In this document: positions 30,653-59,627 of the stretch, one piece after another
Layout: every line of letters starts with the position of its first letter
Numbering within the stretch: the first letter of the stretch is position 1
Translations under genes and position numbers: made by a program
NCBI GenBank assembly: GCA_050260015.1
Contig: JBLNBN010000039.1
Span: forward strand, 93,944 to 157,943
Source: Chloroflexota bacterium
Lineage (GTDB): Bacteria; Bacteroidota; Ignavibacteria; Kapaibacteriales; UBA2268
Direction: 5' to 3'
DNA length: 64,000 nucleotides
The notes under the pieces: generated by a model
What the model was told of the DNA's origin: nothing
Database searches by the model: none
Seen by the model: only the letters and a program-made list of their open reading frames with translations

Positions 30653-31996
30653 ATGCAGCATTGGACTATAAAGCGCTCGCTTTTTTTACTCGCAGTACTA
30701 GCCGCTACTTTTAACCTTGCGCACGCGCAAAACGATCGAAAGCAGGTCAACGAAGACTCATTGCGAAAAGAATTGCTTGAGGACGCTAAGGTAACGGCAG
30801 CTAGAAAAGAAATTGAAATTACTGTGCGCAGCGTGGATATAAGCAAATTCCCCCAGGTTAAGATCATAATTGAGGCTTATAATAAATTAGGCGAACCCCT
30901 GGATAGTCTTACTAGCGAGAACCTCTGGGTTTACGAGAACGGCGTTCAGAAAAAGGTTCTCGAGGTTAGGAAAATACCCGTTGCGGACCAAATCGCCGTC
31001 GACTTCGTCCTTCTAATGGATAGAACGGGCTCGATGCAACAGAACATTAACGCAGTTCGCTCGAACATATCTACGTTCAGCCGCAACCTTATGAAGCGCG
31101 GTATCGATTCACGCCTGGGTCTTATTATTTTCGGGGATGAAATAGACAAAGTCTATCAACCGACTAACAATATTCTTACATTTCTTGATTGGATATCCCC
31201 GTTGCAAGCGCAGGGCGGCGGCGACGAGAAGGAAAACGCGCTCGAAGCGCTGGAAGCTCTCGCAAAGATCAACTGGCGAAGAGAAGCTATTAAGGTGGCC
31301 GTTCTAATCACCGACGCGCCGTACCACCAGGCAGGCGAAGAGGGGTTCGGGCTAACTAATCAAACGACGAATTCAATAATCGAATTGATGCAGCGCAACG
31401 AAATTCGCGTGTTCTGCATCGTCCCGCCGAGGCTGACCGGCTACCAAACTATCGCAACGAAAACGAGGGGCAGCGCGTTCGATATCGATTATCCCTTTTC
31501 CACTATATTGGATAACTTTTCAAACCAGCTGACAAACCTGTTCTCCTTAACGTACAACTCCGGCCAAAGCGCACTACCGGATTCTATCGAGATAGCTCTC
31601 TTTAATAAAGGCCAGCAACGCCTGGTAAAGAAGACTATTCCTATTGTTGAATTGGGCCGAAAGCTGATCATCGAGAACCTGCTCTTTGAGACTAACAAGT
31701 TTACTCTACCAGATAACGTCGGGGAATTAAATCTTTTGGCTGATTTTCTCCGCGCTAAATCGACGGTGGAGATACTTATTGAAGGACATACCGACAACGT
31801 GGGCAGCGCTTCGGTAAACTTAAAGCTTAGCGAACTGCGCGCGCAGGCGGTAAAGGAATACCTGGTAAAGAAGGGGATTGCGGACGCGAGGATCCAAACG
31901 AAGGGCTTTGGGAAAACTAAACCAATAGCTACAAATAAAACTGAGTTTGGGCGTCAGCTCAACCGTCGAACCGAGATTGTGATACTTTCAAAATAA
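30653..31996 (+). CDS. vWA-domain / OmpA-domain fusion protein (paralog of 11993-13411)
   Basis: Signal peptide. MIDAS 'FVLLMDRTGSMQ'. OmpA_C 'IEGHTDNVGSASVNLKLSELRAQAV...NRRTEIVIL'. Confidence 0.8.
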   Translation: MQHWTIKRSLFLLAVLAATFNLAHAQNDRKQVNEDSLRKELLEDAKVTAARKEIEITVRSVDISKFPQVKIIIEAYNKLGEPLDSLTSENLWVYENGVQKKVLEVRKIPVADQIAVDFVLLMDRTGSMQQNINAVRSNISTFSRNLMKRGIDSRLGLIIFGDEIDKVYQPTNNILTFLDWISPLQAQGGGDEKENALEALEALAKINWRREAIKVAVLITDAPYHQAGEEGFGLTNQTTNSIIELMQRNEIRVFCIVPPRLTGYQTIATKTRGSAFDIDYPFSTILDNFSNQLTNLFSLTYNSGQSALPDSIEIALFNKGQQRLVKKTIPIVELGRKLIIENLLFETNKFTLPDNVGELNLLADFLRAKSTVEILIEGHTDNVGSASVNLKLSELRAQAVKEYLVKKGIADARIQTKGFGKTKPIATNKTEFGRQLNRRTEIVILSK

Positions 31997-32261
31997 AATC
32001 ATCGCCCGTTTCCCGTTCGCGATCAATAAATTCCCGGACGGCGGGCTTGACGAACATATCGTCGCTATTTCCGGCTGAAGCGAGACAACGTGCAAATATA
32101 TTTGCCGCCGCTTCAGCCGATGTGTTTTTGTTCAACAGGACGACCTTTTCTTCGTTAACGTAGCAGAATCCGCTCTTAAATCTACCGGAATCCCGCCTGA
32201 TCTTAAATCCCTGGGACTTTACCAATTCCTCTAATTCGCTGGCTATTTCCTTTATCTTCAT
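31959..32261 (-). CDS. Hypothetical small protein (100 aa)
   Basis: Start codon overlaps the stop of the upstream membrane-protein gene (ATGA). 3' end overlaps the convergent vWA-OmpA gene by 38 nt. Confidence 0.35.
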   Translation of the reverse strand: MKIKEIASELEELVKSQGFKIRRDSGRFKSGFCYVNEEKVVLLNKNTSAEAAANIFARCLASAGNSDDMFVKPAVREFIDRERETGDDFILKVSQSRFDG

Positions 32262-32824
32262 TCGACGATTTCCTTAGCCGCTATCGCTTCGGCTTTGCTT
32301 TGTGAAAGCGGTCGCCATATTACGTAAAGCAAGGCAGTGAGATTTGCCAAAAATGCAAGGCTCGTGCCGGTCGTAAAAGCGACGTTCTTAAATCTCGGTA
32401 TCAGGTAGTTTTGGATCGCCGGATCAGCAAAATCCTTGACGTTTCCATAATATACCGCCAGGCTTAACTTTACGTCCATCCAAAGGAGGTAAAGTTCCAT
32501 CGGCGAAGCTAAAAAGAAAAGTATAAACGCCATAAACAGCCACCCCTCGCGCTTCATTTGCTTTCTTAGCAAGAAGAATAAAACTATCGCTGTAAGGAAA
32601 GCCGCAATATAGGCAACGCCTGGATAGAGCGCGAGCGTAGCGAACAGGTACGCGGAATGCATACGTATTTCGTTCGTATAATGCGTTTTAAGAAGCATAT
32701 CGGCCGTGGGGTAGAATAAGTCGAACCCTACCGCCGAACGTACTAAATTGCCTCCAAACCATATTAAAAAGCCGATTGAAAAAGCAGTGAGCAGTATTTT
32801 TACGAGTTTTGTGTTGTAATGCAT
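32258..32824 (-). CDS. Hypothetical polytopic membrane protein (188 aa)
   Basis: At least 5 hydrophobic helices. No motif recognised. Confidence 0.5.
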   Translation of the reverse strand: MHYNTKLVKILLTAFSIGFLIWFGGNLVRSAVGFDLFYPTADMLLKTHYTNEIRMHSAYLFATLALYPGVAYIAAFLTAIVLFFLLRKQMKREGWLFMAFILFFLASPMELYLLWMDVKLSLAVYYGNVKDFADPAIQNYLIPRFKNVAFTTGTSLAFLANLTALLYVIWRPLSQSKAEAIAAKEIVE

Positions 32825-32907
32825 AGCTACAGTATATATTTCTTTATAGGCAAATTTACGAAATTTACTCTTAATTACTTATTGATTCGATTGACTTATA
32901 TAAGAAT

Positions 32908-34170
32908 TTAAATCAGGTCGGTCCTAACTCTTTTGATGTTGGCGCCGAGGGATTCCAATTTCTTTTCCAGGGCTTCGTAGCCGCGGTCTAAATGATAGAT
33001 CCTGAGCACTTCCGTTTTTCCTTCGGCGACTAAAGCCGAGAGTATCAGGCTCGCGGAAGCGCGTAAATCGCTTGACATAACGATAGCCCCGGAGAGCCTT
33101 TTGCCGCCTTTTATAATCGCCGAGTTGTCGATTACTTCAATGTCGGCGCCGAGCCTTTGCAGCTCGGGCACATGTTTAAACCGGTCGCTGTAAATAGTGT
33201 CCGTCACCCGCGAAACGCCTTCGGCGCATAGCATATAAGCGGTCCATTGCGCCTGTATGTCGGTCGGGATGCCGGGATAAATCGCCGTCGTTATATCCGT
33301 AGGAGTCGGGGCGGCGTCGGATTCAATTAAGATAGTATCGTTGTTAACGTCTATAGCGCATCCCGCGTTCTCAAGCTTAGCGATAACGGACGCGAGGTGA
33401 TAGGGATTGACTTTCTCGAGTTCTACCTTTCCCTTAGTCATAGCTGCGGCAATTAAGAAAGTAGCGGCTTCTATTCTATCGGGTATAACGATTTCGTCGA
33501 CCGGCTTAAGGGAGTCGACGCCTTCGATTTCGAGAACGCTTGTGCCGATGCCTTCAATCTTAGCTCCCATCTTGCAAAGCATCCGGGCGAGAGCGGTTAT
33601 TTCAGGTTCCATTGCGGCGTTAGTAAGCTGCGTAGATCCTTTAGCGAGCGTGGCGGCCATCAGCAAATTACCGGTGGCTCCAACGCTGGAGATATCGAAA
33701 TGGAATTTACCGCCCGACAATCTATCGGCCTCGGCGAGCACGTACCCGCTTTCAAGGGAGATTTTGGCGCCTAACTTTTCAAGACCTTTAAGGTGAAGAT
33801 CCACAGGGCGAGGGCCCCACGCGCAACCGCCGGGAAGAGAGACTTTAGCCGAACCGTACCGCGCTACGAGAGGTCCGAGGACGTAGAAGGAAGCGCGCAT
33901 TTTCTTTACGTGCTCGTACGGGGCTTCGAATTTAGTGATTTCGCGGGAGTCCAAGAAAAGTTCGCCGTCGTTTAGCTCGCTAAACGCTCCAAGTTCCCCC
34001 AACAGGCGGGACATCGTCCAGACGTCGCGTAGATTGGGCACGTTGTCAAGCTTGTAAATTCCCGGGGCTAGGATCGCGGCGGGCATAAGAGCTAACGCGC
34101 CGTTTTTCGAGCCGCTTACTTTTAGCCTACCGCGAAGACGAGCTCCGCCCTCCACTATCAATTTATCCAT
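32908..34170 (-). CDS. murA: UDP-N-acetylglucosamine 1-carboxyvinyltransferase
   Basis: EPSP-synthase fold 'KVSGSKNGALALMPAAILA', 420 aa. Active-site loop 'LPGGCAWGPRPVDLH' carries the catalytic Cys. Confidence 0.9.
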   Translation of the reverse strand: MDKLIVEGGARLRGRLKVSGSKNGALALMPAAILAPGIYKLDNVPNLRDVWTMSRLLGELGAFSELNDGELFLDSREITKFEAPYEHVKKMRASFYVLGPLVARYGSAKVSLPGGCAWGPRPVDLHLKGLEKLGAKISLESGYVLAEADRLSGGKFHFDISSVGATGNLLMAATLAKGSTQLTNAAMEPEITALARMLCKMGAKIEGIGTSVLEIEGVDSLKPVDEIVIPDRIEAATFLIAAAMTKGKVELEKVNPYHLASVIAKLENAGCAIDVNNDTILIESDAAPTPTDITTAIYPGIPTDIQAQWTAYMLCAEGVSRVTDTIYSDRFKHVPELQRLGADIEVIDNSAIIKGGKRLSGAIVMSSDLRASASLILSALVAEGKTEVLRIYHLDRGYEALEKKLESLGANIKRVRTDLI

Positions 34171-34336
34171 TTATTCTCTCTTTTGCTTTTTAAAATACAA
34201 AAATAAGATTAAAAGTAGTATTGTAAAAGGGATATTCTAAGAATGCCTTGCTCCGCGTGAAAAGAGGAATTGTTTTTTCTTTGGTAATTGCGTAATTTTG
34301 CAAATTGAAGGAGTTTAAATTCTCATTAAAATATGA

Positions 34337-35818
<1,482 letters not shown>

Positions 35819-35855
35819 AAGCAGGCTCGAATAGCTGGTTAATTAAGGAGAAAAA

Positions 35856-36122
35856 ATGGACGGCAAGTATTTGAACGTGAATATAATAACTCCTCAAAAG
35901 AAATTTTTCGAGGGCGACGCTCGCTCGATAACTCTTCCGGGCAGCAAGTCCCCATTCCAAGTATTAATAAACCACGCGCCGATCGTTACATCGCTCGAGC
36001 GCGGTAGAATTACCATCGAATCCGACGACGGCGAAAAGCTCTTTTTCGAAAGCGGCGAAGGATTCGCGGAAGTTCGCGAGAATCATGTATACGTTGCGGT
36101 GGAGAGCTGCCGCCAAATTTGA
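35856..36122 (+). CDS. atpC: F0F1 ATP synthase subunit epsilon, short form (88 aa, beta-sandwich domain only)
   Basis: 'LNVNIITPQK...FEGDA'. Directly downstream of atpD. Lacks the C-terminal helical hairpin. Confidence 0.8.
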   Translation: MDGKYLNVNIITPQKKFFEGDARSITLPGSKSPFQVLINHAPIVTSLERGRITIESDDGEKLFFESGEGFAEVRENHVYVAVESCRQI

Positions 36123-36135
36123 GGAATAGATCAAA

Positions 36136-37605
36136 ATGCAGATAAATAAAATAGCTTTCGAGGGGCTGACGTACGACGACGTGCTTCTTTTGCCCGCTTA
36201 TTCGGAAGTTTTGCCGCGCGAGACCCGGCTCGAGACCCGGTTAACGCGGAAAATTCACCTGAACCTACCATTCATCAGCGCTGCCATGGACACCGTAACG
36301 GAAGCCGAAATGGCGCGCGCCGTCGCTCGCGAGGGCGGCATCGGCGTTATTCACAAGAATATGTCGATCGAAGATCAAGCCGACCAGGTAGATCGGGTTA
36401 AGCGCAGCGAAAGCGGCATGATAATGAAGCCGATTACGCTGACCGGCGACAAAACGGTTGCCGACGCGCTCGAGCTAATGGGGAAATTCCATATCTCGGG
36501 CATTCCTATAGTCGACGAGAACAACGTGCTTCGCGGCATAATAACCAACCGCGACCTGCGTTTCCGCCCGCACTCCTCGGAGCGCATCGACGCGATAATG
36601 ACGAAGGACAACCTGATCACCGTGCCAAACGGAACTACGCTGGAAGAAGCCGAAGAATTGCTCCAGCGCAACCGGATTGAAAAGCTCCCCGTCGTGGACG
36701 AAAACTACACGCTGCAGGGCTTGATTACATTCAAGGATATATTAAAGAAAAAGCTCCACCCGATAGCGTGCAAGGACGAGCAGGGCAGGCTCCGCGTAGC
36801 GGCGGCGGTCGGCGTCTCGGGCGATACGCTCGAACGCGTCGCGGCCCTAGTCGAGGTAGGCGTCGACGCCGTGTTTGTGGATACGTCGCACGGCCACAGC
36901 CGCGGCGTATTGGAAACGGTAAAAAGAATAAAAGCTAAATACGGCGAGCTGCAAATTGTCGCGGGAAACATAGTGACGGCTGAAGCCGCCGAAGCTCTCG
37001 CCGACCATGGCGCGGACGCCGTTAAGGTGGGCATCGGGCCGGGTTCTATCTGCACGACGCGCATCGTCGCAGGCGTCGGGGCTCCGCAGCTGACTGCCGT
37101 AATGAACGTGGCGGAAGCGACCCAAAAATTAGGCATTCCGTTAATTGCCGACGGCGGCATTAAGCAAACGGGCGACGCGGCCAAAGCTATAGCAGGCGGC
37201 GCCGATTCCGTTATGATAGGGAACCTCTTCGCAGGCCACGAGGAAAGCCCCGGCGAAAAGCTTATCTACGAGGGCAGAGTCTACAAATACTATCGCGGCA
37301 TGGGCTCGATCTCCGCTATGAAGCAGGGGTCGGCGGACAGGTACTTCCAGGATATGGAAGAAGAAATTTCGAAATTCGTACCGGAAGGCATCGAAGGCCG
37401 CGTACCGTTCAAAGGCAACGTAGCCGACACTGTCTACCAGCTCGTGGGCGGCTTGCGCTCCGCAATGGGCTACTGCGGCTGCCGGACGATCGAGGAAATG
37501 AAGCAAAAAGCCAGGTTCAACAAGATTACCGCGGCCGGATTTAGGGAATCGCATCCTCATACGGTCCAGATAACGAAGGAATCTCCGAATTACTTCGTCC
37601 AATAA
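36136..37605 (+). CDS. guaB: IMP dehydrogenase
   Basis: CBS pair. Catalytic loop '[11 protein letters not shown]'. 'GGIKQTGD'. Confidence 0.95.
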
Positions 37606-37675
37606 TTTTGCGCGAAAATGCGTAAATGTAAAAAAGTAAATGATGATTAATTAAATATATTCACGGAAGCAAAAT

Positions 37676-38788
37676 ATGGCTGATACACAAGCATACCCGG
37701 CGATTATAGACAAAAGGCTGGAACAAGTCCGATTCTCGATGCGCGACGACTTTAAGGTCGACGCGGTCGTTATTACTTACCTGCCCAATATTCGCTATTT
37801 AACTAACTTCTCCGGCTCCGCAGCCACGCTCGTCATTATGCAGGACAAGCTGCACTTCATTACCGACGACCGATACGAGGAGCAAATAAAAGGGGAGCTT
37901 TTTGAACTTCCGGACTTGCATACTCATATTACTCGCGACGTCTGGGGACTCCTCTCCTCGAGCGACGCGTTCGCCGATATTTCTTCGATAGGCTTCGAGG
38001 CGGATAAGATGCCTTACGCCGAAGCCGTGGAAATTCGCAATAAGATTAAGCCACTTAAGTTTAAACCTGCCCCGAACGCGCTCGAACGCTTTACACAGGC
38101 GAAGGGCCCCGAAGAGCTCGAATACGTTAAAAGCTCCTGCGCGATCGCCGAGCAAGTATACAATCATATACTGACTTATATCAAGCCCGGTATTACCGAG
38201 ATGGATATTTCGCTCGAGATCATTTACCAGCTCTATAAATTAGGCAGCGAGGGCCAGGCGTTCGATACGATCGTCGTCTCCGGCGAGCGCGGAGCGCTGG
38301 TTCACGGCAAGCCGAGCATGAAGAAGATCCATAAGAACGACATAATTACGATGGACTTCGGCGCGAGGGTTAACGGGTTCTGCTCGGACATCACGCGCAC
38401 GGTATGCGTAGGCAAAGCCACCAAAGAGCAAAAGGCGGTATACGCGGTGCTTTACAAAGCCCTGAATCACTCGATAGACGTAGTTAAGCCCGGCATGAAG
38501 GGCAAAACGCTCGACTTGGCGGCGCGGAAGGTGATAGAGGACGGCGGTTACGCCGAGCACGTCTACAAGCACTCCCTTGGGCACGGCCTGGGGCTCGAGG
38601 TGCACGAAAAGCCGCTTATCAACTATCGCTACGAGGACGTCCCGATCCCGGACGAATGCGTTATAGCGATAGAGCCGGGCGTTTACATCCCGAACCGCTT
38701 CGGCATCCGCCTGGAGGACAACGTATTCGTAACGCGGCGCGGCGCGCAACGCCTTACGAACTGCCCCCCGGAACTTATTAGCATATAG
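37676..38788 (+). CDS. pepP: Xaa-Pro aminopeptidase (M24 family)
   Basis: 'HSLGHGLGLEVHE', 'DFGARVNGFCSDITRT', 370 aa. Confidence 0.85.
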   Translation: MADTQAYPAIIDKRLEQVRFSMRDDFKVDAVVITYLPNIRYLTNFSGSAATLVIMQDKLHFITDDRYEEQIKGELFELPDLHTHITRDVWGLLSSSDAFADISSIGFEADKMPYAEAVEIRNKIKPLKFKPAPNALERFTQAKGPEELEYVKSSCAIAEQVYNHILTYIKPGITEMDISLEIIYQLYKLGSEGQAFDTIVVSGERGALVHGKPSMKKIHKNDIITMDFGARVNGFCSDITRTVCVGKATKEQKAVYAVLYKALNHSIDVVKPGMKGKTLDLAARKVIEDGGYAEHVYKHSLGHGLGLEVHEKPLINYRYEDVPIPDECVIAIEPGVYIPNRFGIRLEDNVFVTRRGAQRLTNCPPELISI

Positions 38789-38910
38789 TTGGAAAAATTA
38801 AAAAATGTGGAAAAGTATTTTGCTTTAGGAACTTTTTCTTATATTTGTAATCCTAAAGAATTGGAAAATTGAATAATTTATTGAAATAGTTATAAAAGCG
38901 AAGGTGCAGA

Positions 38911-39054
38911 ATGAAAAGAACTTACCAACCGAGCCGCCGCAAGCGCGTCAATAAGCATGGCTTTCGCGCTCGTATGGCGTCGAAGAACGGACGCAAGGTG
39001 TTGGCCCGCAGACGCGCAAAGGGCAGGCACAAACTTACGGTCAGCGACGAATAG
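38911..39054 (+). CDS. rpmH: 50S ribosomal protein L34 (47 aa, too short for the ORF track)
   Basis: Manual translation: [47 protein letters not shown]. Confidence 0.9.
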
Positions 39055-39079
39055 CGGCTCGCGAGCGAGCAATGTATCT

Positions 39080-39127
39080 ATGGGGCTTTCTTTACCTTCG
39101 ATTAAAGGCAGCCCCATATTTTTTATA
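39080..39127 (+). terminator. Hairpin plus T-tract between rpmH and rnpA (possible attenuator)
   Basis: ATGGGGCT (39080-39087) / AGCCCCAT (39110-39117) with a 22-nt loop, then ATTTTTTA. Confidence 0.4.
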
Positions 39128-39145
39128 TGATAACCGCACGACTCA

Positions 39146-39553
39146 ATGCCTAAGTTACTAAAGCCGCTCAAAGGGAAAAAAAACTTTGACGCGCTATTTA
39201 AAGAGGGAGTAAAATTCCGTAGCGGACCGCTTTTCGCAGTTTTCCTGCGAGCAAGCTCCGATACGGTCTCGTTGAATTTCGTAGCGTCCGTTTCGAAACG
39301 AACGGCTAAGAAAGCCGTAGTTCGAAACCGAATAAAAAGACTGCTCCGCGAAAGTTTTCGTAAATTAAATTCTCAAGGGGCGTTCGACTTTGACGGCGCG
39401 CCGGCCGCGCTATTTCTTTCGTGGCAGCTAGCCGCAAAGAAGCCCTCGGAAGTCTCGCTGAAGGACGCCTTGCCGGCGGTCGAAAGAGCGGTGGCTACTC
39501 TTCGAAAGAAAACGGAAAATAAAAATGAAGACGATTGCGATCCTGATCATTAA
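39146..39553 (+). CDS. rnpA: Ribonuclease P protein component
   Basis: '[19 protein letters not shown]'. Conserved rpmH-rnpA-yidD-yidC synteny. Confidence 0.85.
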
Positions 39554-39734
39554 ATTCTATAAAGCGGCGATCTCGCCGTTTTTGCCGCCCTCTTGCCGGT
39601 TTTATCCGACATGCTCGCAATACGCAATGGAAGCTCTTGAAAAGTACGGATTCCTTAAAGGCTCCAAAATGGCCGTTAAGAGAGTCCTGCGTTGCCACCC
39701 GGGCAATCCAGGCGGCTTCGATCCGGTCGAATAG
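39525..39734 (+). CDS. yidD: Membrane protein insertion efficiency factor YidD
   Basis: '[27 protein letters not shown]'. Overlaps rnpA by 29 nt. Confidence 0.85.
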
Positions 39735-39791
39735 ACGTTTCCGACCATGCTTATTAACTAAGAATAATCAGTACTAATTAAATTAGAAAAA

Positions 39792-41657
39792 ATGGACAAA
39801 AGAACTACCGTTGGTTTTGTACTCGTTACAGTAATCATCCTAGGCTGGTTGATGTGGACCTCCACGCATCAGCAACAAATGCCGGAAAAAGAGCGAAAAA
39901 AAGCTGTCGCTCAAAAGGTCGAATCCAAGCAAATCGAGAAAGCAGCAGTCCAACCCGGGGCGGCGACGTCCGAGGTCCTCGCGGCTAAGCTCGGCAGGTT
40001 CGCGGCATTCGCCGGCGGCGAATCCCAAATCATTACAGTGGAAACCGATCTCTACGTGGCGAAGATTTCCTCGCGCGGCGGCTCGATTATGAGCTGGCGC
40101 TTAAAAAAGTACAATAAGTGGGACGGCGAGCCCACGCAACTGATCGATAATCCTTACGGCGAGCTCTTCCTGCAATTCGTTACGCTCGAAGGAAAGAAAA
40201 TCGATACGCGGGAGCTCAATTTCTCCGTCGTCGACGGCGCCGGCAATATTAAAGTTACAGGAAAGGATCGCAAGTCGCTCGCGCTCAAGCTCGACCTCGG
40301 CGCCGGCAAGTCCATCGTACGCCAGTATTACTTCTATGGCGACGAGTACGCGTTCGATAATAAAATTACGTTAAATAATTTAGAAGATATATTGCCTACC
40401 CGCGGTTACGACCTAAGGTGGAACCGCGGCCTGAGATTCCAGGAACGCAACAGCGTCGACGAAGCTACGGAAGCGGTAGCCAGGGTTTCGCAGAACGGGG
40501 AAGTCGCCGAATTGGACGCAGCTTCTTCGCAACGGGAGCTGAGCTCGACCGGACTGCTGGACTACGCCGCAATGAAGACGAAATACTTTACCGCGGCTTT
40601 AATTCCGCAGCCCTGGCAGAGCTTCGACGGAACCGTCGACGTTAACGGATGGCGCGAACCGCGCCCGGACAACGGGGTTATAGAGCGCTACGGCATATCT
40701 ATCCGCGTGCCTTACCGCGGCGGTTCGGATTCCAAAATATTTAAGGCTTATATCGGACCGCTCGATTACCGCATAGTTCGCTCCTACGGATTGGAGCGCC
40801 TGGTTAACTTCGGCTTCCGTATAGGTATTCGCCAAATAGGCGAGTACGTAATGCTGCCGATGTTCAACTTCATCCACGACATCGTTCCCAACTACGGTAT
40901 TTCCCTTATTCTATTCGCGTTCTTTATTAAGCTGCTTCTGCATCCGCTCTCGATACAGCAAATGCGCTCCTCGCAGAAAATGCAGGTCCTCGGCCCGGAA
41001 ATGCAGCGTATACGCGAAAAGTACAAAGACGACCAGGCGAAGCAACAGCAGGAAACTATGAAGCTTTACTCCGAGTATGGAATTAATCCCGCCGGGGGCT
41101 GCTTGCCGCTGCTCGCTCAAATGCCTATCTTCTTCGCGCTTTGGGCGACGCTCCGCTCGGCGATCGACTTACGCCAGTCGCCGTTCATTTGGTGGATCAA
41201 CGACCTATCAGTCCCGGACGCTATCATTACTTTCCCCGGCTCTTTCTTAGGGATTAATCACCTTTCCGGGCTTGCCCTTCTAATGGGCGTTACGATGTAC
41301 TTCCAGCAGAAGATGACGGTTACCGATCCCCGGCAGAAGTCGATGGTCGTTATGATGCCGGTGCTTTTCGTATTTATGTTCTCCAACTTCCCGGCTGGCT
41401 TGAACCTCTACTACTTTATGTTTAACGTGCTTTCCATCGGGCAGCAGGTCTACATGAATAAGTTCTCCAGGAATAAGCCTTCGTTGGATGATTTAAAGAA
41501 ATCTCCCAAGAAGGAAGGCTGGTTGCAAAAGAAAATGCGCGAAGCGCAGGAAATGGCTGCGGCCCAGGGACGCCCCATGCCAGGCCAGAAGCCGCAGAAC
41601 CGCGAGATTAAGCCCGGCTCCTCCGCTAAAGGCGGGCAGGGCAAAAAGAAGAAATAA
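39792..41657 (+). CDS. yidC: Membrane protein insertase YidC
   Basis: N-terminal TM, large periplasmic domain, 5-TM core, C-terminal Lys-rich tail 'GQGKKKK'. 621 aa. Confidence 0.9.
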   Translation: MDKRTTVGFVLVTVIILGWLMWTSTHQQQMPEKERKKAVAQKVESKQIEKAAVQPGAATSEVLAAKLGRFAAFAGGESQIITVETDLYVAKISSRGGSIMSWRLKKYNKWDGEPTQLIDNPYGELFLQFVTLEGKKIDTRELNFSVVDGAGNIKVTGKDRKSLALKLDLGAGKSIVRQYYFYGDEYAFDNKITLNNLEDILPTRGYDLRWNRGLRFQERNSVDEATEAVARVSQNGEVAELDAASSQRELSSTGLLDYAAMKTKYFTAALIPQPWQSFDGTVDVNGWREPRPDNGVIERYGISIRVPYRGGSDSKIFKAYIGPLDYRIVRSYGLERLVNFGFRIGIRQIGEYVMLPMFNFIHDIVPNYGISLILFAFFIKLLLHPLSIQQMRSSQKMQVLGPEMQRIREKYKDDQAKQQQETMKLYSEYGINPAGGCLPLLAQMPIFFALWATLRSAIDLRQSPFIWWINDLSVPDAIITFPGSFLGINHLSGLALLMGVTMYFQQKMTVTDPRQKSMVVMMPVLFVFMFSNFPAGLNLYYFMFNVLSIGQQVYMNKFSRNKPSLDDLKKSPKKEGWLQKKMREAQEMAAAQGRPMPGQKPQNREIKPGSSAKGGQGKKKK

Positions 41658-41673
41658 ATAGCTCCATATAGCG

Positions 41674-41711
41674 AAAAAGGCGGTCTTTCGATCGCCTTTT
41701 TTATTTTTTAC
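41674..41711 (+). terminator. Rho-independent terminator after yidC
   Basis: AAAAGGCG (41675-41682) / CGCCTTTT (41693-41700), then TTTTATTTTTT. Confidence 0.6.
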
Positions 41712-41792
41712 GCGATTTGCCGCTCAATGTTCCCTTAACTTTTGTTATTTTTATATTTTAAAAAAGTTAACAAATATATTTTTGGTGTTTAA

Positions 41793-42947
41793 ATGATATA
41801 TCTCAACAATGCTGCGTCGAGCTTTCCAAAGCCTCCCGAAGTGTTCGAGGCCGTCGCCAACTGTATTAACGTTCCCCCGATGAATCACTCCCGCTCGGGT
41901 TTCGAGGAGGACTTCGAAGACGTTATCTTCGCTACGCGTAACGTAGTCGGAGAGTTCTTCGGCGTTTCTACGCCCAACCAAATGATCTTTACTTCAGGTT
42001 CCACCGAGGCGCTTAACCTCGCTATTCGCGGCGTAGGGCTCGAGGGCGGGCACGTAGTCTCGACCATGGTCGAGCATAATTCCGTTATTCGCCCGCTCAA
42101 GACGATGGAGCAGGAGGGCGCGCTCGAAGTCGACTTCGCCGAGTGCGACGCGACCGGCTTCGTTAATCCGGAAAATATTGAACGGCTGATTAAGCCAAAC
42201 ACGAAAGCGGTAGTACTGAACCACTGCTCCAACGTCACCGGCTGCGTCCAGGACGTCAAAGCTATTTCCGAAATAGCCCATGCTAAAGGCTTGCTCGTGA
42301 TCGTCGACGCTTCGCAATCCGCAGGCGCCGTCCCGATAGACGTGAAGGAATTGGGCATCGATCTCCTCGCTTTTACCGGGCATAAGTCCCTCTACGGACT
42401 GCAGGGCTCGGGCGGCTTATTCGTGAAGGAAGGCATCGATATTAAGCCTATAAAGGTCGGCGGCACGGGCGTAAAGAGCGAAATGCTCACCCAGCCGCAG
42501 GAAATGCCGCTGCTCTGCGAAGCTGGCACGCCGAACACCCCAGGCATCGTCTCGCTCAACGCGGGCATCAATTGGATAAAGAAGACCGGTTTGGATAAGA
42601 TCCACGACCGCAAGAAAGAACTCCTTTCGAGAATATATAACGAACTCTCCGAGCTTCCCGAAGTGCGCATGTACCGCCCCGAGGATAAGTACAACTGCTG
42701 GGGCAACTTCTGCTTCAACGTAGGCGAAATGGTTCCCGAGGAGATTAACTTCATACTCGAGAGCAGCTACGATATCCACGTGCGCTCGGGCCTCCACTGC
42801 GCGCCGCTGATACTCGTTCCGCTGGGCGTTCACCCCTGGGGCACGGTCCGCGCGAGCGTCTCTTACTTCACCGCCGACGAGGAAGTCGAGAAGTTTATCG
42901 ACGCTATAAAGGACATCGTAAAGACGTTCGTACGCAGAGGGAAATAG
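41793..42947 (+). CDS. Class V aminotransferase / cysteine desulfurase-family protein (PLP-dependent)
   Basis: 'FTSGSTEALNLA'. PLP-Lys region 'FTGHKSLYGLQGSGGLFVK'. 384 aa. Confidence 0.75.
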   Translation: MIYLNNAASSFPKPPEVFEAVANCINVPPMNHSRSGFEEDFEDVIFATRNVVGEFFGVSTPNQMIFTSGSTEALNLAIRGVGLEGGHVVSTMVEHNSVIRPLKTMEQEGALEVDFAECDATGFVNPENIERLIKPNTKAVVLNHCSNVTGCVQDVKAISEIAHAKGLLVIVDASQSAGAVPIDVKELGIDLLAFTGHKSLYGLQGSGGLFVKEGIDIKPIKVGGTGVKSEMLTQPQEMPLLCEAGTPNTPGIVSLNAGINWIKKTGLDKIHDRKKELLSRIYNELSELPEVRMYRPEDKYNCWGNFCFNVGEMVPEEINFILESSYDIHVRSGLHCAPLILVPLGVHPWGTVRASVSYFTADEEVEKFIDAIKDIVKTFVRRGK

Positions 42948-42962
42948 TTAAGGAACTAACTT

Positions 42963-43241: not shown

Positions 43242-43269
43242 AGACAATGAATTTGGTATAGGATAAAAC

Positions 43270-43305
43270 CAAAAGGCAAGGCCAGAAAAGCCTTGCCTTT
43301 TTTAA
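43270..43305. terminator. Bidirectional terminator
   Basis: AAGGCAAGGC (43273-43282) / GCCTTGCCTT (43290-43299), flanked by an A-run and a T-run. Confidence 0.6.
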
Positions 43306-43741: not shown

Positions 43742-43956
43742 CTCAACGTTCCCCTCGCATTAAACAAAAACTACGCTATTCATAACGGATTAATTTATGA
43801 TATGTTTTTAATATCGGACAGGGTGACGTGGCTGAGTTTAGTCATTTCCGCGCAGGCGGAAATCCATATTGTCTGAACCATTGATTAATTTGATTAATAT
43901 GATTAATACATGATTGAATAGCCGAAAATAACGCATAAGCGCGTGCAATATAAGAG

Positions 43957-44483
43957 TCTGTCACTCCGAAGCGCAGCGAGGAGTCCAAAGAATTAAATTG
44001 AAGAAGTATCATTAGGGCTAATGCGTCTCCTTTGCGAATCGGGCTACTCTCAACGAATCCGAAGGATTCGAATGTCTATAGAAACGCGCGCTCACCTCCT
44101 CTCCTCGTGGGGCGGAGTCGGGGGCTCGTCCCACAAAGAAATGAACGCGGAGCGTTCTATTCGCATTCCCACGCTGAGCATGGGAACGATTGGGATATCG
44201 CGCCGTACACTGAGCCCCGTCGAAGGGTACGGCTAAGGAAACGCCGGGCGCTTCGACAGGCTCAGCGACCGGCTGCCGGTTACATTTTTCTTAACCCCGG
44301 AGGGATTACAGCTTTGTAACGCGAAGCGCGATTCCCTCCCTTCTCCCCTTGGCGGAGACGCGGGCACGAAAAAAAATCGCGCCGCAAACCCGCGCTGGAA
44401 GCCGCTTTCCCGTAATTTCAGCAAAAAACTAAAAAAACATTGTTTTTGAGTGTTACAAAATCGCATCTCGATTGTTTATATAG
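43957..44483. repeat. Composite dispersed intergenic repeat (modules 1-3) upstream of a T9SS cargo gene
   Basis: Module 1 'GTCACTCCGAAGCGCAGCGAGGAGTCCAAAG'. Module 2 'GCTAATGC...AACGAATCCGAAGGATTCGAATGTCTATAGAAAC'. Module 3 at 44351-44483 is near-identical to 57851-57984. Confidence 0.6.
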
Positions 44484-44518
44484 ATAAATATCTTGACAAT
44501 TTTCAAAAAGAGTAAAAG

Positions 44519-45898
44519 ATGAAAAGTTTCGCCGTCCTATTCTTTGCCGCAGTGTTGTTGCTACCGGGCTTCGGAAAAGCCGTGTGCGCCGATAAATACG
44601 TAAATCCCATAGGAGAGGACTGGATAACTATCGATTCCGCCGATAGGGAATTGGTTCCTGCGGAGGACTGGGTGAATTATTATAGATATCTTGTCTGCTC
44701 AGATTCTCTCAATTGCCTTGGTATGATTGATTTAGGTAATATGTCCCATTACCTCTTTCGAAGAACTACCGACGGGGGCTTAACCTGGGAAAATATTAGC
44801 GTCGATAGCAGCGATTGCATGATATACCCTCATATTATGGCTATGCCGGACAAAAATACTGCTTTATTGCTCGGCGATACCGGAGTCGTTCTAAGATCAA
44901 CTAACGGCGGATATTCATGGAACGCGGCAAAAATACCGGGATTTAATGCGGAAAAGTACTGGTTCAATCATTTATTTATGAAGGGCCCCATCGGAATTGC
45001 TCAATACGGAGCCTCGGATTGCTATATGACCGAGGACGGCGGCGCAAGCTGGAGCAAAATGGAAATTAATGTTGAGCCCGACTTGAAATATTCAATCTCC
45101 CATTTGTCAATACTCGATTACAACAATTTCATTATGTGGGGCATCCACCATGATTATGATAAAGATAGCATAGTGACCGGAGAATTTAGCTGCTATTATA
45201 CTACCTCGGACAGGGGAAAAACCTGGAACCTATTTAAGATGCTACCCTACGACGAGGATCGTTACCACAAATTTACGTTCTTCAACAGTAAAATGGGCTT
45301 TTCCTCTTACCAAACGACAAGAAAAAAAACCAGCGATCAAGAATACGATACAGTGACGACTTATATTTACAAAACACACGATGGAGGAAACGCCTGGAAT
45401 GAGATATTTAGGGATATAAATCCTTACTACGGCTATCAAACGGTCTTTTTCGATTCTTTGCATGCCATTGGCCGCGACAATTACGGGAAGTGTATAATAA
45501 CGAGCGACGGCGGTTACAACTGGAAAAAAACGGATTGGGTTAAATACGAAAACAATCAGTATGGATACTATTCTTTAGCTACGGCATACTTAACGCCGGA
45601 AACTCCATTAATCACTAATGGCGTAAAGGTTCTTAAATACGTAGGGAAGAATAAATCAATTCGCGACGCCGCTCCGCCAAGCGAAACTATCTTCATCAGC
45701 CCAAACCCCGCGTCCGAGTTTATATCAATAACGCCCTCGCCAACCGGCGTGAAGGCGCCTATTGAAATATATTCGAACCTGGGCTTGCTTGCTCTCTCTT
45801 CTCCGAACGAAGCGGGAAGGATAGACGTTGCCCGGTTGCCCGCGGGCGTTTATTTTATCAAGATAGGAACGCAGGTAGCGAAATTTGTGAAGATATAA
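44519..45898 (+). CDS. Secreted BNR/Asp-box repeat (Ycf48/sortilin-like beta-propeller) protein with C-terminal T9SS sorting domain
   Basis: Signal peptide. Six '[ST]xDGGxxW' repeats. C-terminal tail 'ISPNPASEFISI...GVYFIKIGTQVAKFVKI'. Confidence 0.75.
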   Translation: MKSFAVLFFAAVLLLPGFGKAVCADKYVNPIGEDWITIDSADRELVPAEDWVNYYRYLVCSDSLNCLGMIDLGNMSHYLFRRTTDGGLTWENISVDSSDCMIYPHIMAMPDKNTALLLGDTGVVLRSTNGGYSWNAAKIPGFNAEKYWFNHLFMKGPIGIAQYGASDCYMTEDGGASWSKMEINVEPDLKYSISHLSILDYNNFIMWGIHHDYDKDSIVTGEFSCYYTTSDRGKTWNLFKMLPYDEDRYHKFTFFNSKMGFSSYQTTRKKTSDQEYDTVTTYIYKTHDGGNAWNEIFRDINPYYGYQTVFFDSLHAIGRDNYGKCIITSDGGYNWKKTDWVKYENNQYGYYSLATAYLTPETPLITNGVKVLKYVGKNKSIRDAAPPSETIFISPNPASEFISITPSPTGVKAPIEIYSNLGLLALSSPNEAGRIDVARLPAGVYFIKIGTQVAKFVKI

Positions 45899-46270
45899 GA
45901 TTGTCATTGCTGCGAAGAATCCAAGGCGTATTATGCGTTTCGGGTTTGAAGACGGTAACGCCCTGCGCGGGGCGGGTAAGCGAATTGCCGTGAGCTTATG
46001 GATACTCGCCTGCGCGAGCATGGAAAGACTTTCCTGTAACAGCGCTTAGCTCGTAATTTACCAAAATACAATTCCGCCCATCCTTCCCCATCCCGTAAAG
46101 CCTTCTCCAAATAGCTGATCATTAACCATTAAACATTGATAATTGATAATTGATTTTCCGCCTTTCATCCGCCGAAACCCGCCATTCGCCTACATTCGCA
46201 GGGGTATGGAGCGAAACATCCGTAATTTCGCCCTCGTATTCAGCGCATAGAAGAAATTAAACTTAAATAA

Positions 46271-55842: not shown

Positions 55843-55924
55843 TTCCGCTCCAATTTTAGTCTTTGTTAAATAATAGATTAGAGCGAAGAAAGTTAATTTT
55901 TATTTGGTGTAAATTTATTTTCTA

Positions 55925-56335
55925 ATGCGACGCACAAGCGCGGCCCGGTCATTCCCGACCTGGTCGGGAATCTAAAGTATCTATAGATTCCGGGCGCTTC
56001 GACAAGCTCAGCGACCGGCTTCCGGGTCATTCCCGACTCGATCGGGAATCCAGTTGTCCGAACCTGGATTAAGCTGATTTTTATGATTTAACTGATTAGC
56101 GGGAAAAAATCATAAGAATAAACGCATTAAACGCATGAAATGGATGAGTTTGTCATTCCGATGAACGAAGTGAAGAGGAATCTAAAGGAATTGTGTGAAA
56201 AAATTCCGCTGGCGCTAATGCATTTAAATTTGTATCTCTCCGCCCTTAACGAATCCGCAGGATTCGTATGTCTATAGGAACCCTTGTCCATCTTTATTCT
56301 CCTCACGCGGCGAAGCCGCGGGAGCCCCTGCGAAA
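55925..56335. repeat. Cluster of hairpin repeat modules in the long intergenic region upstream of 56472
   Basis: Two 'GTCATTCCCGAC-N6-GTCGGGAATC' hairpins. 'CCGGGCGCTTCGACAAGCTCAGCGACCGGCTTCCGG' matches 44234-44269. Modules 1-2 at 56151-56335 match 43957-44120. Confidence 0.55.
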
Positions 56336-56471
56336 ATATTATTTGCGATTATTCACATATTTACTTAAGTTTGCTCATATAACATTTAGATAACCCCGGC
56401 TTTATTTATATTTGGGATTAATAGTTAATAAGAATGTTAAATTTTATCCAAATAAAAATTAAGAGTTCTGT

Positions 56472-57686: not shown

Positions 57687-57756
57687 GGAGCTTTTGGATA
57701 AAGACTTCAGATGGTTTTTATCCTTCTTCTGCGCCATAGATTGAATTAAAAGATGT

Positions 57757-57789
57757 GGGCGGATGCTGAACTTATAGAAGCATCCGCCC
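57757..57789 (+). terminator. Strong hairpin downstream of the CARDB-like gene (10-bp stem, no U-tract)
   Basis: GGGCGGATGC (57757-57766) / GCATCCGCCC (57780-57789). Confidence 0.35.
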
Positions 57790-57850
57790 ATTGACTTTAA
57801 ATAACGCCCGGCGGCCGAACCTTCCGCTAAGCGCCCCCCCTCCTACCCTC

Positions 57851-57984
57851 GGCGAAGCCGCGGGCACGAAAAAAATTCGCGCAGCAAACCCGCGCTGGAG
57901 GCCGCTTTCCCGTAATTTCAGCAAAAAACCGATGGAATATTATTTTTTTGGTGTTACAAAACCGCATCTCGATTGTTTATATAG
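57851..57984 (+). repeat. Conserved ~130 bp element upstream of a T9SS cargo gene (second copy of module 3)
   Basis: GGCGAAGCCGCGGGCACGAAAAAAATTCGCGCAGCAAACCCGCGCTGGAGGCCGCTTTCCCGTAATTTCAGCAAAAAAC ... TGTTACAAAACCGCATCTCGATTGTTTATATAG, about 90% identical to 44351-44483. Confidence 0.65.
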
Positions 57985-58165
57985 GAGAGCGGTGATGCGA
58001 TTTCGGAAAAAGTTCCGGGAAATGACCGGCAGGAGCATTTGCCGAGCGTAAGCGCCGCGCTCCGGCGCGGACAGCGTAACGATGAAAAATTATTTTGTTT
58101 AAATTTCGCATTTTTTTTCGTTTAGATATTAATACCGGGTCAATTACTTTCCAAAAGGTCGCGTT

Positions 58166-59581
58166 ATGAAAAAACTATTCCTTCTTTCCTCGATCGTTTT
58201 TGTACTGCTGAGCGTTATCGCAACGGCGCAGGATATAAAGGTCCTTAACTTTTACGACGGCGATACATACTTCGACGGGCATGTTGCAAGTAAAATGGCT
58301 TATGACCATTATCGGAACAAAGTTTACTGTGTAACAGTAGATACAAAAAATGCTAATCAAAATCGATACTTTTTAAGGATGTTGGAAGACGGGGCTTGGC
58401 AACAAATCAACACTGTAGAGCAGGGGTATCCCTACGGGGATACGCTATTTATTAAGGGAATAGATATTGACAAGCATAGCCGGGTTTGGATAACAACTTC
58501 CGAGGGTTTTCTTAAGTATGAGAATGAGAAGTGGGAAAAAATCGAGACAGAAGATATTGAAGGATTGAAGGTCAAATCATACGTAGCGGTAATTCCTGAT
58601 TCATTAGGAAATGCGTTTTTATATATTAATTATGGCTATTTGTTTTATAGCGGCGGTCCCGTGACCCAGATAATGCGGATGAACTTATATAAATATATGC
58701 CGGAAGGCAACACGCTGATTTACAGTTGCGATTCGGCGAACTATGTTGATAATCCTGTAAGACTTGGTGGCATCTCCCCGCGGGCTTATTGCGCGGACGA
58801 CAAGGGAAATATTTGGCTTGCTAGCGATCAAAATACCAATGGAGAAGACGACTTTCCAAAAATAAAGGGGATGATGCGATATAGCGACACAGAAGGAAAA
58901 TTTGAATTTTTTGAAATGAAGAATTTAAGCAAAAATATGCAGCGTATCATGCCCCAACAGCTTATATATGATAAAGATCATTTATGGCTTGTCAACGGAT
59001 GGAGCTATGCCGGAGGAATCAGTAGAATGAGCCTGCAGACGCAGGAATGGGAACTTTTTGACAGTTTCGACGGAATGAAGGACTTGAGTTCAGCTTTTCA
59101 CAGATTGCAAACAATGGTTCAGGACGGCGATTCTATACTTTGGGGTGGAACATTCGGCTGGGGCTTACTTAAATTCGACCTGAAGGCTAAAAAAGTAGAA
59201 CGAATCAGCTTTGCTGATGTCCTGAATCGCGACGACTTAAGGTATAAATTAAACGAAGTATACAATAGCTTTAAGGATAAAGACGGCAACAACTGGTTCG
59301 TCACGCGGGCTGGAATTATTAAAACGGAAGGAAAGAAGACGACGTCCGCGGATAACGTTGAGGAGCCCAGGTTTGGCGTCTTTCCCAATCCCGCAAGCGA
59401 TCGCATATCAATTACCGGTCTTGATATAAATTTAAGCGGAAAGGTCGCAATCTATTCCCAATTAGGCGTAAAGGCGCTCGAAACATCAGCCGTCGAAGGA
59501 ATGATCGACGTTTCGTCGCTTCCCGCGGGCGTTTACCTATTGCGGGCGGGCGGCGGCGCGGCGAAATTCGTAAAGATATAA
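58166..59581 (+). CDS. Secreted beta-propeller (Reg_prop-like repeats) protein with C-terminal T9SS sorting domain
   Basis: Signal peptide. Repeats 'WITTSEGFLKYE', 'IWLASDQNTNG', 'ILWGGTFGWGLLKFD'. C-terminal 'FGVFPNPASDRISI...GVYLLRAGGGAAKFVKI'. Low GC. Confidence 0.7.
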   Translation: MKKLFLLSSIVFVLLSVIATAQDIKVLNFYDGDTYFDGHVASKMAYDHYRNKVYCVTVDTKNANQNRYFLRMLEDGAWQQINTVEQGYPYGDTLFIKGIDIDKHSRVWITTSEGFLKYENEKWEKIETEDIEGLKVKSYVAVIPDSLGNAFLYINYGYLFYSGGPVTQIMRMNLYKYMPEGNTLIYSCDSANYVDNPVRLGGISPRAYCADDKGNIWLASDQNTNGEDDFPKIKGMMRYSDTEGKFEFFEMKNLSKNMQRIMPQQLIYDKDHLWLVNGWSYAGGISRMSLQTQEWELFDSFDGMKDLSSAFHRLQTMVQDGDSILWGGTFGWGLLKFDLKAKKVERISFADVLNRDDLRYKLNEVYNSFKDKDGNNWFVTRAGIIKTEGKKTTSADNVEEPRFGVFPNPASDRISITGLDINLSGKVAIYSQLGVKALETSAVEGMIDVSSLPAGVYLLRAGGGAAKFVKI

Positions 59582-59597
59582 GAACGTCACGCGAAGC

Positions 59598-59627
59598 GAG
59601 GAATCCAAAGGATATTGTGGATTCCTC
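59598..59627 (+). repeat. Perfect 10-bp hairpin of the GAGGAATCC repeat family immediately after the T9SS gene
   Basis: GAGGAATCCA / TGGATTCCTC, preceded by 'GTCACGCGAAGCGAGGAATCCAAAG' (module 1 consensus). Confidence 0.45.

Follow-up and report, generated by a model that had tools for sequence, protein, structure and literature searches.

What are the short hairpin repeats that fill the longest gaps between genes in this 64-kb stretch of contig JBLNBN010000039.1 (the window, which was analysed whole), and do they belong to a system that is already known? A first-pass annotation had found recurrent modules, numbered i to v, in five long intergenic regions and had called them MITE- or REP-like, that is, akin to miniature inverted-repeat transposable elements or to repetitive extragenic palindromes. 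We read the sequences of these regions directly, and their bounds are exactly as it gave them: IGR1, 43742-44518; IGR2, 45899-46270; IGR3, 55843-56471; IGR4, 57687-58165; and IGR5, 59582-60042. They hold short, oriented hairpin repeats of several independent families, arranged as a mosaic. The hairpins of one family, which comprises module iv, a hairpin at 43841 and, less surely, module i, are probably target motifs of the Ssn system, in which a small GIY-YIG nuclease acts on single-stranded DNA (ssDNA). Module iii, a second class, we read more tentatively as the site of another nuclease of this kind.

The GTC-palindrome-C hairpins and the Ssn system

The link to the NTS repeats of Neisseria came from a full-text literature search with a GTCATTCC-type sequence. 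NTS, which includes dRS3, has the sequence CGTCATTCCCGCGMAVGCGGGAATCYRG, and looser 'Ssn-related motifs' (SRM) occur in other phyla (Chenal et al., Nat Commun 2025, PMC11893778). SsnA, a GIY-YIG protein of 94 amino acids (aa), binds NTS and cuts a few bases upstream of it; it acts on ssDNA only, on the motif strand only, and does not bind RNA. Cleavage requires the three bases that precede the palindrome and binding requires the C that follows it; the identity of the loop is dispensable. The motif flanks the ssn genes, NTS are clustered near genes for membrane proteins, and incoming DNA that bears NTS recombines less and gives lower transformation (all from PMC11893778). Module iv, module i and the hairpin at 43841 carry the same signature, namely 5'-GTC, an ATTCC…GGAAT palindrome and then C. 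In all five full copies (43841, 43960, 55948, 56026 and 56152) GTC stands directly 5' and C directly 3' of the palindrome, the stem at 43960 being ACTCC/GGAGT. Stems are 8-9 bp long at 43841, 55948 and 56026, and 5 bp long at 43960 and 56152. The members in the window are as follows.

43838-43869, plus strand: NTS-like hairpin (hairpin A); GTC, an 8-bp stem ATTTCCGC/GCGGAAAT with loop GCAG, C, tail CAT
43957-43990, plus strand: module i; GTC, a 5-bp stem ACTCC/GGAGT with the 12-nt loop GAAGCGCAGCGA, C, tail CAAAG
45900-45926, plus strand: truncated module i, GTCATTGCTGCGAAGAATCCAAGG, directly after the stop codon of gene 44519-45898
45996-46022, minus strand: degenerate NTS-like hairpin, CATGCTCGCG-CAG-GCGAGTATCCAT, without the 5' GT
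55945-55977, plus strand: module iv, copy 1; GTC, a 9-bp stem ATTCCCGAC/GTCGGGAAT, C, tail TAAAG
56023-56055, plus strand: module iv, copy 2, GTCATTCCCGACTCGATCGGGAATCCAG
56149-56187, plus strand: module i, long-loop copy; GTC, ATTCC/GGAAT with a 17-nt loop, C, tail TAAAG
59586-59650, both strands: inverted pair; a truncated plus-strand module i, GTCACGCGAAGCGAGGAATCC, stands opposite a minus-strand long-loop copy at 59620-59650

Such hairpins are far more frequent than chance allows. The pattern GTCAYTCC-N4-30-GGARTC occurs four times in the window against an expected 0.04, and GTCA[TC] followed by a perfect stem of at least 8 bp and C occurs three times against 0.027 in shuffled sequence, a count that none of 300 shuffles reached. 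Folded as DNA, hairpin A gives -8.1 kcal/mol (z -3.5), module iv copy 1 -9.5 kcal/mol (z -2.6) and the inverted pair -12.5 kcal/mol (z -2.8).

The evidence that ties these hairpins to a nuclease comes from other genomes. With a family consensus as query, we retrieved members of a family of ca. 95-aa GIY-YIG proteins that are 63-85% identical across Ignavibacteriota, Kiritimatiellia, Omnitrophota, Thermotogota and the Candidate Phyla Radiation (CPR), and took 80 JGI metagenome loci encoding them for an analysis of their flanks. Almost uniformly, TGTCATTCCCGCGAAAGCGGGAATCCAG lies just upstream of the gene and its inverse just downstream. By a definition based on structure alone, a hairpin on the gene strand stands within 150 nt upstream in 52 of the 80 loci and an inverted one within 150 nt downstream in 54, and hairpins number 5.6 per kb within 200 nt of the gene but 0.15 per kb at distances above 1 kb. 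Hairpins of module-iv form, GTCATTCCCGA…TCGGGAATC, were found 12 times in these loci, ten times within 180 nt of the gene. Three of them (L141, L168 and L180) carry GTCATTCCCGACTTGATCGGGAATC beside the GIY-YIG gene, which differs by a single loop base from module iv copy 2 at 56026. Two other loci, L142 and L147, contain tandems of half-sites.

From 106 hairpins that flank GIY-YIG genes, and from these only, we built a covariance model (R1) and searched the whole window with it, without filters. The best matches are all among the hairpins listed above: 43838 (34.9 bits, E 2.9e-8), 56023 (26.3 bits, E 1.4e-5), 55945 (21.6 bits, E 4e-4), 45996 on the minus strand (18.9 bits, E 0.0028), 56149 (18.8 bits, E 0.0031) and 43957 (17.3 bits, E 0.009). 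The truncated module i at 45900 follows with 14 bits (E 0.097), and besides the listed modules the only match below E 0.1 is the reverse-strand reading of the palindrome at 56026. As controls, 725 kb of unrelated loci yielded nothing at E<0.01, and the conserved stretches nearby, taken from a relative and from a strain, were likewise free of matches; the minus-strand match at 45996-46022 recurs in a contig of a strain (L007). The model also detects members that the published SRM pattern misses. In Melioribacteraceae 4301-Me, a cultured organism of Ignavibacteriota class, the gaps around a pair of identical GIY-YIG genes are filled with 30 R1 matches whose orientation alternates, long-loop variants resembling module i among them. 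In this genome (L229, 10001-16739) the two genes with their hairpin arrays bracket a three-gene Fer4/NrfD/molybdopterin oxidoreductase operon in a manner reminiscent of a composite transposon, and a near-threshold match to the Moco riboswitch (15648-15795) overlaps the edge of one array.

Several observations weigh against this assignment. The published SRM pattern, HGTCWYN(0-2)YYVSBRHN(0-5)WNVSBRGN(0-2)RNCYNB, has no exact match in the window, and with one mismatch or fewer allowed it is not discriminating there, since its five matches are at chance level (6.6 expected); hairpin A (43840-43867) is one mismatch away from it. Module i at 43957 has a stem of only 5 bp, folds no better than shuffled sequence (-2.9 kcal/mol, z -0.1), and its loop, GAAGCGnAGCGA, stands beside none of the 80 nuclease genes. 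Covariation statistics of the R1 alignment are inflated because the training hairpins were chosen for perfect stems. The window holds no GIY-YIG gene: the best hit of a profile search over six-frame fragments had an E-value of 0.21, and tblastn returned nothing. Finally, the assignment of the ca. 95-aa family (family A1) to CDD cd10448 could not be confirmed. As to the first of these, the SRM pattern is a hand-made search pattern and not a biological definition. By signature and covariance model the GTCATTCC…GGAATC hairpins are of NTS/SRM type, module i less surely; that they serve an Ssn system in this organism we hold, on balance, somewhat probable.

The likeness to Neisseria extends beyond the GTC, the ATTCCC… palindrome and the C. 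The tails, CAG or CAT, are oriented; the copies in the window are intergenic and cluster by surface- and membrane-protein genes in variable regions; and their relatives elsewhere bracket small GIY-YIG genes, upstream in direct and downstream in inverted orientation. The window copies differ in not fitting the authors' degenerate pattern, in an inner stem that is CGAC/GTCG or is shifted by one base (ATTTCCGC), in the short stem and long loop of module i, in being mixed with other repeat families, and in their host, a Kapabacteria-like bacterium of the Fibrobacterota-Chlorobiota-Bacteroidota (FCB) group with no nuclease gene in the 64 kb at hand. We know of no repeat association for the UPF0213/YhbQ-type GIY-YIG proteins. 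These include the closest solved structures to the hairpin-flanked nucleases (PDB 1zg2 and 1ywl) and have the same single-domain size, yet the match between the two groups is weak (E 2e-4); searches of NCBIfam and of the PDB gave no named family for the nucleases.

Module iii, a hairpin class with a conserved loop

The window contains two copies of the second class in the mosaic.

44242-44279, plus strand: module iii, copy 1; stem CCGGGCGC/GCGACCGG with one G·A mismatch, invariant loop TTCGACAGGCTCA
55988-56025, plus strand: module iii, copy 2, abutting the next hairpin (module iv copy 2)

A genome-collection scan with the 22-mer GCGCTTCGACARGCTCAGCGAC found the class in at least 119 stretches of DNA; hosts among the matches listed are Bacteroidales metagenome-assembled genomes (MAGs), Microbacteriaceae, Smithella, Fibrobacteria, Chloroflexota and others, and the class ranges from Microbacterium with 70% GC to Bacteroidales and to the Kapabacteria-like genome of the window. 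The flanks share one plan, in which a variable stem encloses an invariant 13-nt loop, TTCGACARGCTCA, and the copies often form inverted pairs and lie beside short tandem 7-9-mers. Covariation was assessed on 102 copies chosen by their loop alone, the copies that fit the seed pattern being excluded. The three base pairs that adjoin the loop form in 92-98% of the copies and covary, with 51, 23 and 6 double changes; one of the three is CG in 43 copies, GC in 35 and AU in 13. The covariation score of 0.346 (0.117 in shuffled alignments) was reached by none of 500 shuffles. A covariance model built from the loop-chosen copies (R2) finds exactly two copies in the window, at 44242-44274 (43.4 bits, E 1.6e-9) and 55988-56020 (42.2 bits, E 3.7e-9). 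What by eye looks like a third, on the minus strand at 44201-44232, has no support from R2 (E 4.7). Tandem arrays of the class occur elsewhere: five copies in Microbacterium yannicii (L064, 2878-3079), which lie 30 or 60 nt apart on a 30-nt phase, and three copies with a 109-nt period in a Muribaculaceae MAG (L044, 5996-6235).

This class, too, is found next to GIY-YIG genes. In two of the scanned loci a GIY-YIG gene (Pfam PF01541) adjoins the hairpin, and in four loci of ca. 10 kb that were chosen by protein (from Microbacterium and from a strain labelled Micromonospora sp.) all 16 class-iii loops lie within 400 nt of such a gene, those upstream in one orientation and those downstream mostly in the other. 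Its product can be aligned with the Ssn-type profile from end to end (35% identity, hhalign 97.5%). The Microbacterium gene occupies one conserved position, between DUF1990 genes, a hemW-like gene and lepA, in several species (L215, L227, L228), and its annotated length varies from 93 to 163 aa because the open reading frames (ORFs) run into the repeats. In Nocardioides (L225, 4700-5700) a homologous GIY-YIG gene is flanked by a different pair of repeats, …GGTTGAGCCGGGCGAGGAACGAGCCCGAGTCGAAACC… and …GGTTTCGACACGCTCGCTGCGCTCGCTGCTCAACC…, which hints at a rule of one clade, one repeat for these genes.

We read class iii, from this layout, as the putative site of a second, orthogonal nuclease of the same kind. 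Against this stands that the link with the gene was seen in Actinomycetota only, and that independent contexts are few, since three of the four loci are orthologous and represent the one conserved Microbacterium site. A search of the ca. 8-kb loci around the Bacteroidales copies revealed no GIY-YIG gene. Nor do class iii and the NTS-like hairpins co-occur anywhere else in the 725 kb compared, and the two families are therefore independent. The class-iii sequence had no match in the searchable literature or in the main text of the Ssn paper (PMC11893778). A wider conjecture, which we regard as doubtful though worth stating, is that the loop-conserved TTCGACARGCTCA hairpin would be the site of a distinct Ssn-like GIY-YIG clade, and that genomes such as this one would run at least two orthogonal hairpin/nuclease pairs, with the sites of the different pairs intermingled around hypervariable genes for secreted proteins as a general ssDNA 'punctuation' that gates the recombination of surface antigens across phyla.

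Composition of the mosaic and its genomic setting

Pairs of repeats within the window were checked by blastn-short and by repeat finding. Together with the counts above expectation and the contig ends described below, they bear out the first-pass annotation in that the recurrence of the motifs is real and non-random; some of its positions and groupings needed revision. Module v recurs as it had reported (44346-44483 and 57846-57984; 139 nt, 88% identity). Module ii is a genuine pair (44052-44081 and 56248-56277; 30 nt, 93%), its GCTAATGC element lying at 44017 and 56214 rather than at 44022 and 56213; module iii is likewise genuine (44244-44279 and 55990-56025; 36 nt, 94%), with starts that had been put 10-21 nt off, at 44234 and 55969. 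The pair of module iv (55944-55972 and 56022-56050; 29 nt, 86%), whose coordinates had been off to the same extent, has its true positions at 55948-55972 and 56026-56050. The motif quoted for module i fits 43960-43985 and no other copy. Its set is heterogeneous and holds one full copy, one long-loop copy (56152-56182) with a different 17-nt loop, and two truncated copies (45903 and 59586), the supposed variant at 44316 being weak. One pair had been missed: 56155-56182 matches the reverse complement of 59620-59647 (28 nt, 89%).

The remaining features of the mosaic are these.

43869-43946, plus strand: conserved islands 3' of hairpin A, with TTGTCTGAACC, short AT-rich repeats of GATTAA type and the mini-hairpin AACGCATAAGCGCGTGC
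44052-44085, plus strand: module ii; hairpin in AACGAATCCG-A-AGGATTCG, then ATGTCTATAG; GCTAATGC upstream at 44017-44024
44096-44128, plus strand: module vi, CTCCTC…GGCGGAGTCGGGGGCTCG, read from the sequence and from alignments A2 and A4
44334-44483, plus strand: module v, copy 1; a 150-nt block that opens with a module-vi block and is 86-93% identical to copy 2
56248-56281, plus strand: module ii, copy 2; preceded by GCTAATGC (56214-56221), with module vi next at 56300-56330
57834-57984, plus strand: module v, copy 2, 180 nt upstream of the gene 58166-59581 for a protein of the type IX secretion system (T9SS)

The module ii stem has 7 bp at 44052 and 8 bp in the copy at 56248. Blocks resembling module vi also lie at 44336-44368, 56300-56330 and 57838-57868, with an exact match of 15 nt between 56308-56322 and 57850-57864. 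Module v copy 1 ends 35 nt before the start codon of the gene for a T9SS BNR protein, copy 2 is 97-99% conserved between strains, and module v may be a shared promoter or leader. An insertion with a target-site duplication between module v and the gene in IGR4 was considered and rejected, the alignment showing plain divergence and no bounded insertion. Modules ii, v and vi appear to be lineage-specific and fall outside an account based on Ssn motifs, as do the AT-rich islands, the TTGTCYGAACC island and the GATTAA-type repeats. Smaller elements are also present. Between 59700 and 59825 there are more small hairpins, CTCCCTCTAAAAAGAGGGAG and CCCCTCCTTGATAGAAGGGG, that were absent from the first list; a mini-hairpin motif, AACGC(R)YAAGCGC, recurs at 43930, 55925, 56121, 59673 and 23508; and a 25-nt AT-rich inverted repeat (88%; 55893-55917 and 56438-56462) brackets the whole IGR3 mosaic, with one arm near each of the divergent gene starts and no further copy in the window.

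The modules had been described as shuffled between loci. This is true of module iii, which alone changes its relative place; IGR1 43841-44130 and IGR3 56026-56335 are otherwise one colinear composite of ca. 290 nt, in which conserved islands are separated by diverged spacers (alignment A2, where the islands at 43869-43946 run parallel to 56054-56140), and the shuffling is therefore limited to module iii. The truncated module i at 45903 is in register with that at 59586, each following a conserved T9SS tail. Short-read contigs from several related samples, which carry the window's proteins exactly, end at or inside individual modules: at 43834 and 43863 (hairpin A), 43987 (module i), 44074 (module ii), 44247 (module iii, where contigs start) and 56166 (long-loop module i, where contigs from three samples start). 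As assemblers break at repeated k-mers, and as these ends fall at separate modules, every module must have further copies of its own elsewhere in these metagenomes. The seven to eight copies of the NTS-like family in the window are all intergenic, and the contig breaks in several samples imply further ones. The other long gaps of the window contain no modules and hold fliS, flaG, ssb, rpmH, rnpA, yidD or plain AT-rich DNA. Scans of viral contigs gave two matches for the short module i, one for module iii and none for the long-loop module i or module ii. Hairpins of module-i type, GTCATTCCGAAGCGAAGCGAGGAATC, form gene-less inverted pairs 20-35 nt apart in two IMG/VR contigs (L132, 11975-12060; L133, 10899-10990), with the layout seen at 59586-59650. 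A literature search with peptide translations of the repeats returned nothing relevant.

Nearly every copy had been said to adjoin a gene for a secreted surface protein. The products of four of the seven flanking genes are secreted, and IGR3 and IGR5 also border icmF (IcmF) and mdh (malate dehydrogenase). The four are:

44519 and 58166: proteins with a T9SS C-terminal domain
46271: SusC-like (TonB-dependent) receptor
56472: CARDB-like protein with a signal peptide

The repeat-rich segment lies in DNA that varies between strains and lineages, and this setting may by itself explain the association with secreted proteins. A JGI relative (L134) is 81% identical in DNA from 31817 to 42949 and loses synteny at ca. 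43.3 kb, just past a terminator that the two have in common (43265-43302; compared with L134 11169-11206). Strains differ in the T9SS gene 58166-59581, which is a mosaic allele: compared with L001 11395-12819, the first 32 and about the last 155 residues are near-identical and the middle is ca. 45% identical, and the gene sits inside flanks that are 97-99% identical between strains, which suggests the replacement of a cassette by recombination. In Neisseria, likewise, such repeats occupy variable surface-protein loci. The label 'Chloroflexota bacterium' given to the genome by NCBI (proteins MGE5480168-181) looks wrong on the evidence of its genes: YidC (39792-41657) is closest to Kapabacteria and Ignavibacteria (53-58% identity), and the T9SS sorting domains, the SusC-like receptor and the flagellar genes are FCB-like.

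Alternative readings and possible function

The comparison with mobile elements that was drawn at the outset has to be taken in two halves. 'REP-like' is apt as a description, the repeats being short, oriented, multi-copy intergenic hairpins in mosaics. 'MITE-like' finds no support, as no unit bounded by terminal inverted repeats (TIRs) and no target-site duplication was seen at the module edges, and assemblies break at single modules, not at the ends of composites. The repeats could nevertheless be decayed MITEs or non-autonomous transposons, or remnants of hairpin-ssn-hairpin cassettes that lack the gene, their mosaics being functionless junk left by insertion and deletion. The truncated copies at 45903 and 59586, the half-site tandems of L142 and L147, the gene-less inverted pairs (59586-59650, L132 and L133), the composite-transposon-like operon of L229, and a nuclease family similar enough across phyla to suggest horizontal spread all agree with such an origin. 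We nevertheless consider it unlikely, since no unit of constant length with TIRs at its ends was seen, the modules recur one by one and with differing neighbours, the GTC and trailing C relevant to the enzyme are kept even in poorly pairing copies, the Microbacterium gene keeps to its one chromosomal site, and where relatives of the window hairpins flank a gene it encodes a small GIY-YIG nuclease and no transposase. Bacterial MITEs, the Correia elements among them, resemble the repeats in being small, abundant, intergenic and able to alter the expression of neighbouring genes, and differ in their defined TIRs, fixed length and target-site duplications, none of which was found in the window repeats. 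The other half of the comparison, in its mechanistic form, would have REP elements and bacterial interspersed mosaic elements (BIMEs) maintained by a REP-associated tyrosine transposase (RAYT; Y1, IS200/IS605-like) that recognises the hairpins, as in E. coli, Pseudomonas and Stenotrophomonas. The window repeats share with these the short, imperfect extragenic palindrome, the orienting 5' tetranucleotide, the mosaics with inverted pairs (59586-59650; L133) and the link to a single-copy flanked gene acting on ssDNA hairpins. Classical REPs, however, carry 5' GTAG, and the window signature is GTCA. In ca. 85 loci the gene bracketed by hairpins encodes a GIY-YIG protein (PF01541) instead of an HUH/Y1 transposase, no Y1 transposase occurs among the window genes scanned (part of the ORFs), and the class-iii loop is conserved across phyla, while REPs are species-specific. 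Chenal et al. (PMC11893778) draw the REP/BIME analogy themselves; as the actual mechanism in this genome we find it very improbable.

Two further explanations look to the neighbouring genes. As transcribed cis-regulatory structures in the 5' or 3' untranslated regions (UTRs) of surface-protein genes, the hairpins could serve in stability or processing, or be small RNAs (sRNAs), a role that would be compatible with their being Ssn motifs. All strong copies in IGR1 and IGR3 lie on the strand of the downstream genes, module v, common to two T9SS protein genes, ends close before a start codon, and the A/G polymorphism of the class-iii loop would, in our own reading of the sequence, keep the U-A/U-G pairing of an inner GCUU/ARGC stem. 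Rfam gave no match at the gathering threshold in the whole window and only sub-threshold ones to terminator-like families and to the Francisella sRNA FtrB, the latter at 43797-43893 over hairpin A (27 bits, with a threshold of 66 bits); a paper on Francisella sRNAs contains GCGGGAATGAC, so that the FtrB family may include such a hairpin. We give the RNA reading little chance as the principal explanation: the hairpins lack a T-run behind them, they are found in either orientation around functionally unrelated genes in many phyla, and SsnA does not bind RNA. Intrinsic terminators were not called at any NTS-like hairpin or at modules i and ii; module iii is overlapped only by weak calls at chance level, totals are near the shuffle level, and true terminators stand at 43271-43301 and 59983-60017. 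Local duplication of the regulatory regions and tails of T9SS genes would, for its part, make repeat families unnecessary, and it fits the truncated copies at 45903 and 59586, which stand in register behind a conserved C-terminal domain (a spacing of 13683 is common to D7 and D8) over which the two proteins are 43% identical, and the fact that the window has no more than two copies of either module v or the 290-nt composite. Yet the T9SS proteins show no relationship beyond the sorting domain, hundreds of unrelated genomes contain modules iii and iv, it is at the modules that assemblies break, and the conserved islands are split by diverged spacers. As a general account duplication is thus improbable; module v and the copies in register behind the T9SS tails are the most that it can explain.

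Should the hairpins be Ssn motifs, as we favour, an Ssn-family nuclease encoded elsewhere in the genome would recognise them whenever uptake, replication or repair of DNA exposes their strand in single-stranded form. Recombination at the variable surface-protein loci would then be limited or shaped by the repeats that punctuate them, and module iii would be cut by a second, orthogonal GIY-YIG nuclease, of the kind whose gene has the repeat-gene-repeat layout in the Microbacteriaceae. The analysis itself demonstrates the sequence signature, membership of the family by covariance model, the association of gene and motif in other genomes, the multi-copy status and the variable genomic setting. 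Because there is no GIY-YIG gene in the 64 kb, we infer from other genomes that the organism would encode one or more such nucleases, that these would cut the sites, and that recombination would be affected.

The kind of hairpin is thus one already known. Ssn/NTS repeats have so far been described mainly in Neisseria and a few Pseudomonadati, and what the window would add is an uncultured lineage of the FCB group in which they again stand beside variable surface-protein genes, as fits the proposal that they shape recombination at such loci. A covariance model made from gene-flanking hairpins catches members that the published pattern misses. The link between class iii and GIY-YIG genes is possibly a new lead. 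If true, it would provide a new enzyme/site pair for ssDNA tools and account for a very common, unannotated intergenic repeat that breaks metagenome assemblies; the wider conjecture would also explain intergenic hairpins that have long been noticed across phyla and are routinely mistranslated as spurious short ORFs.

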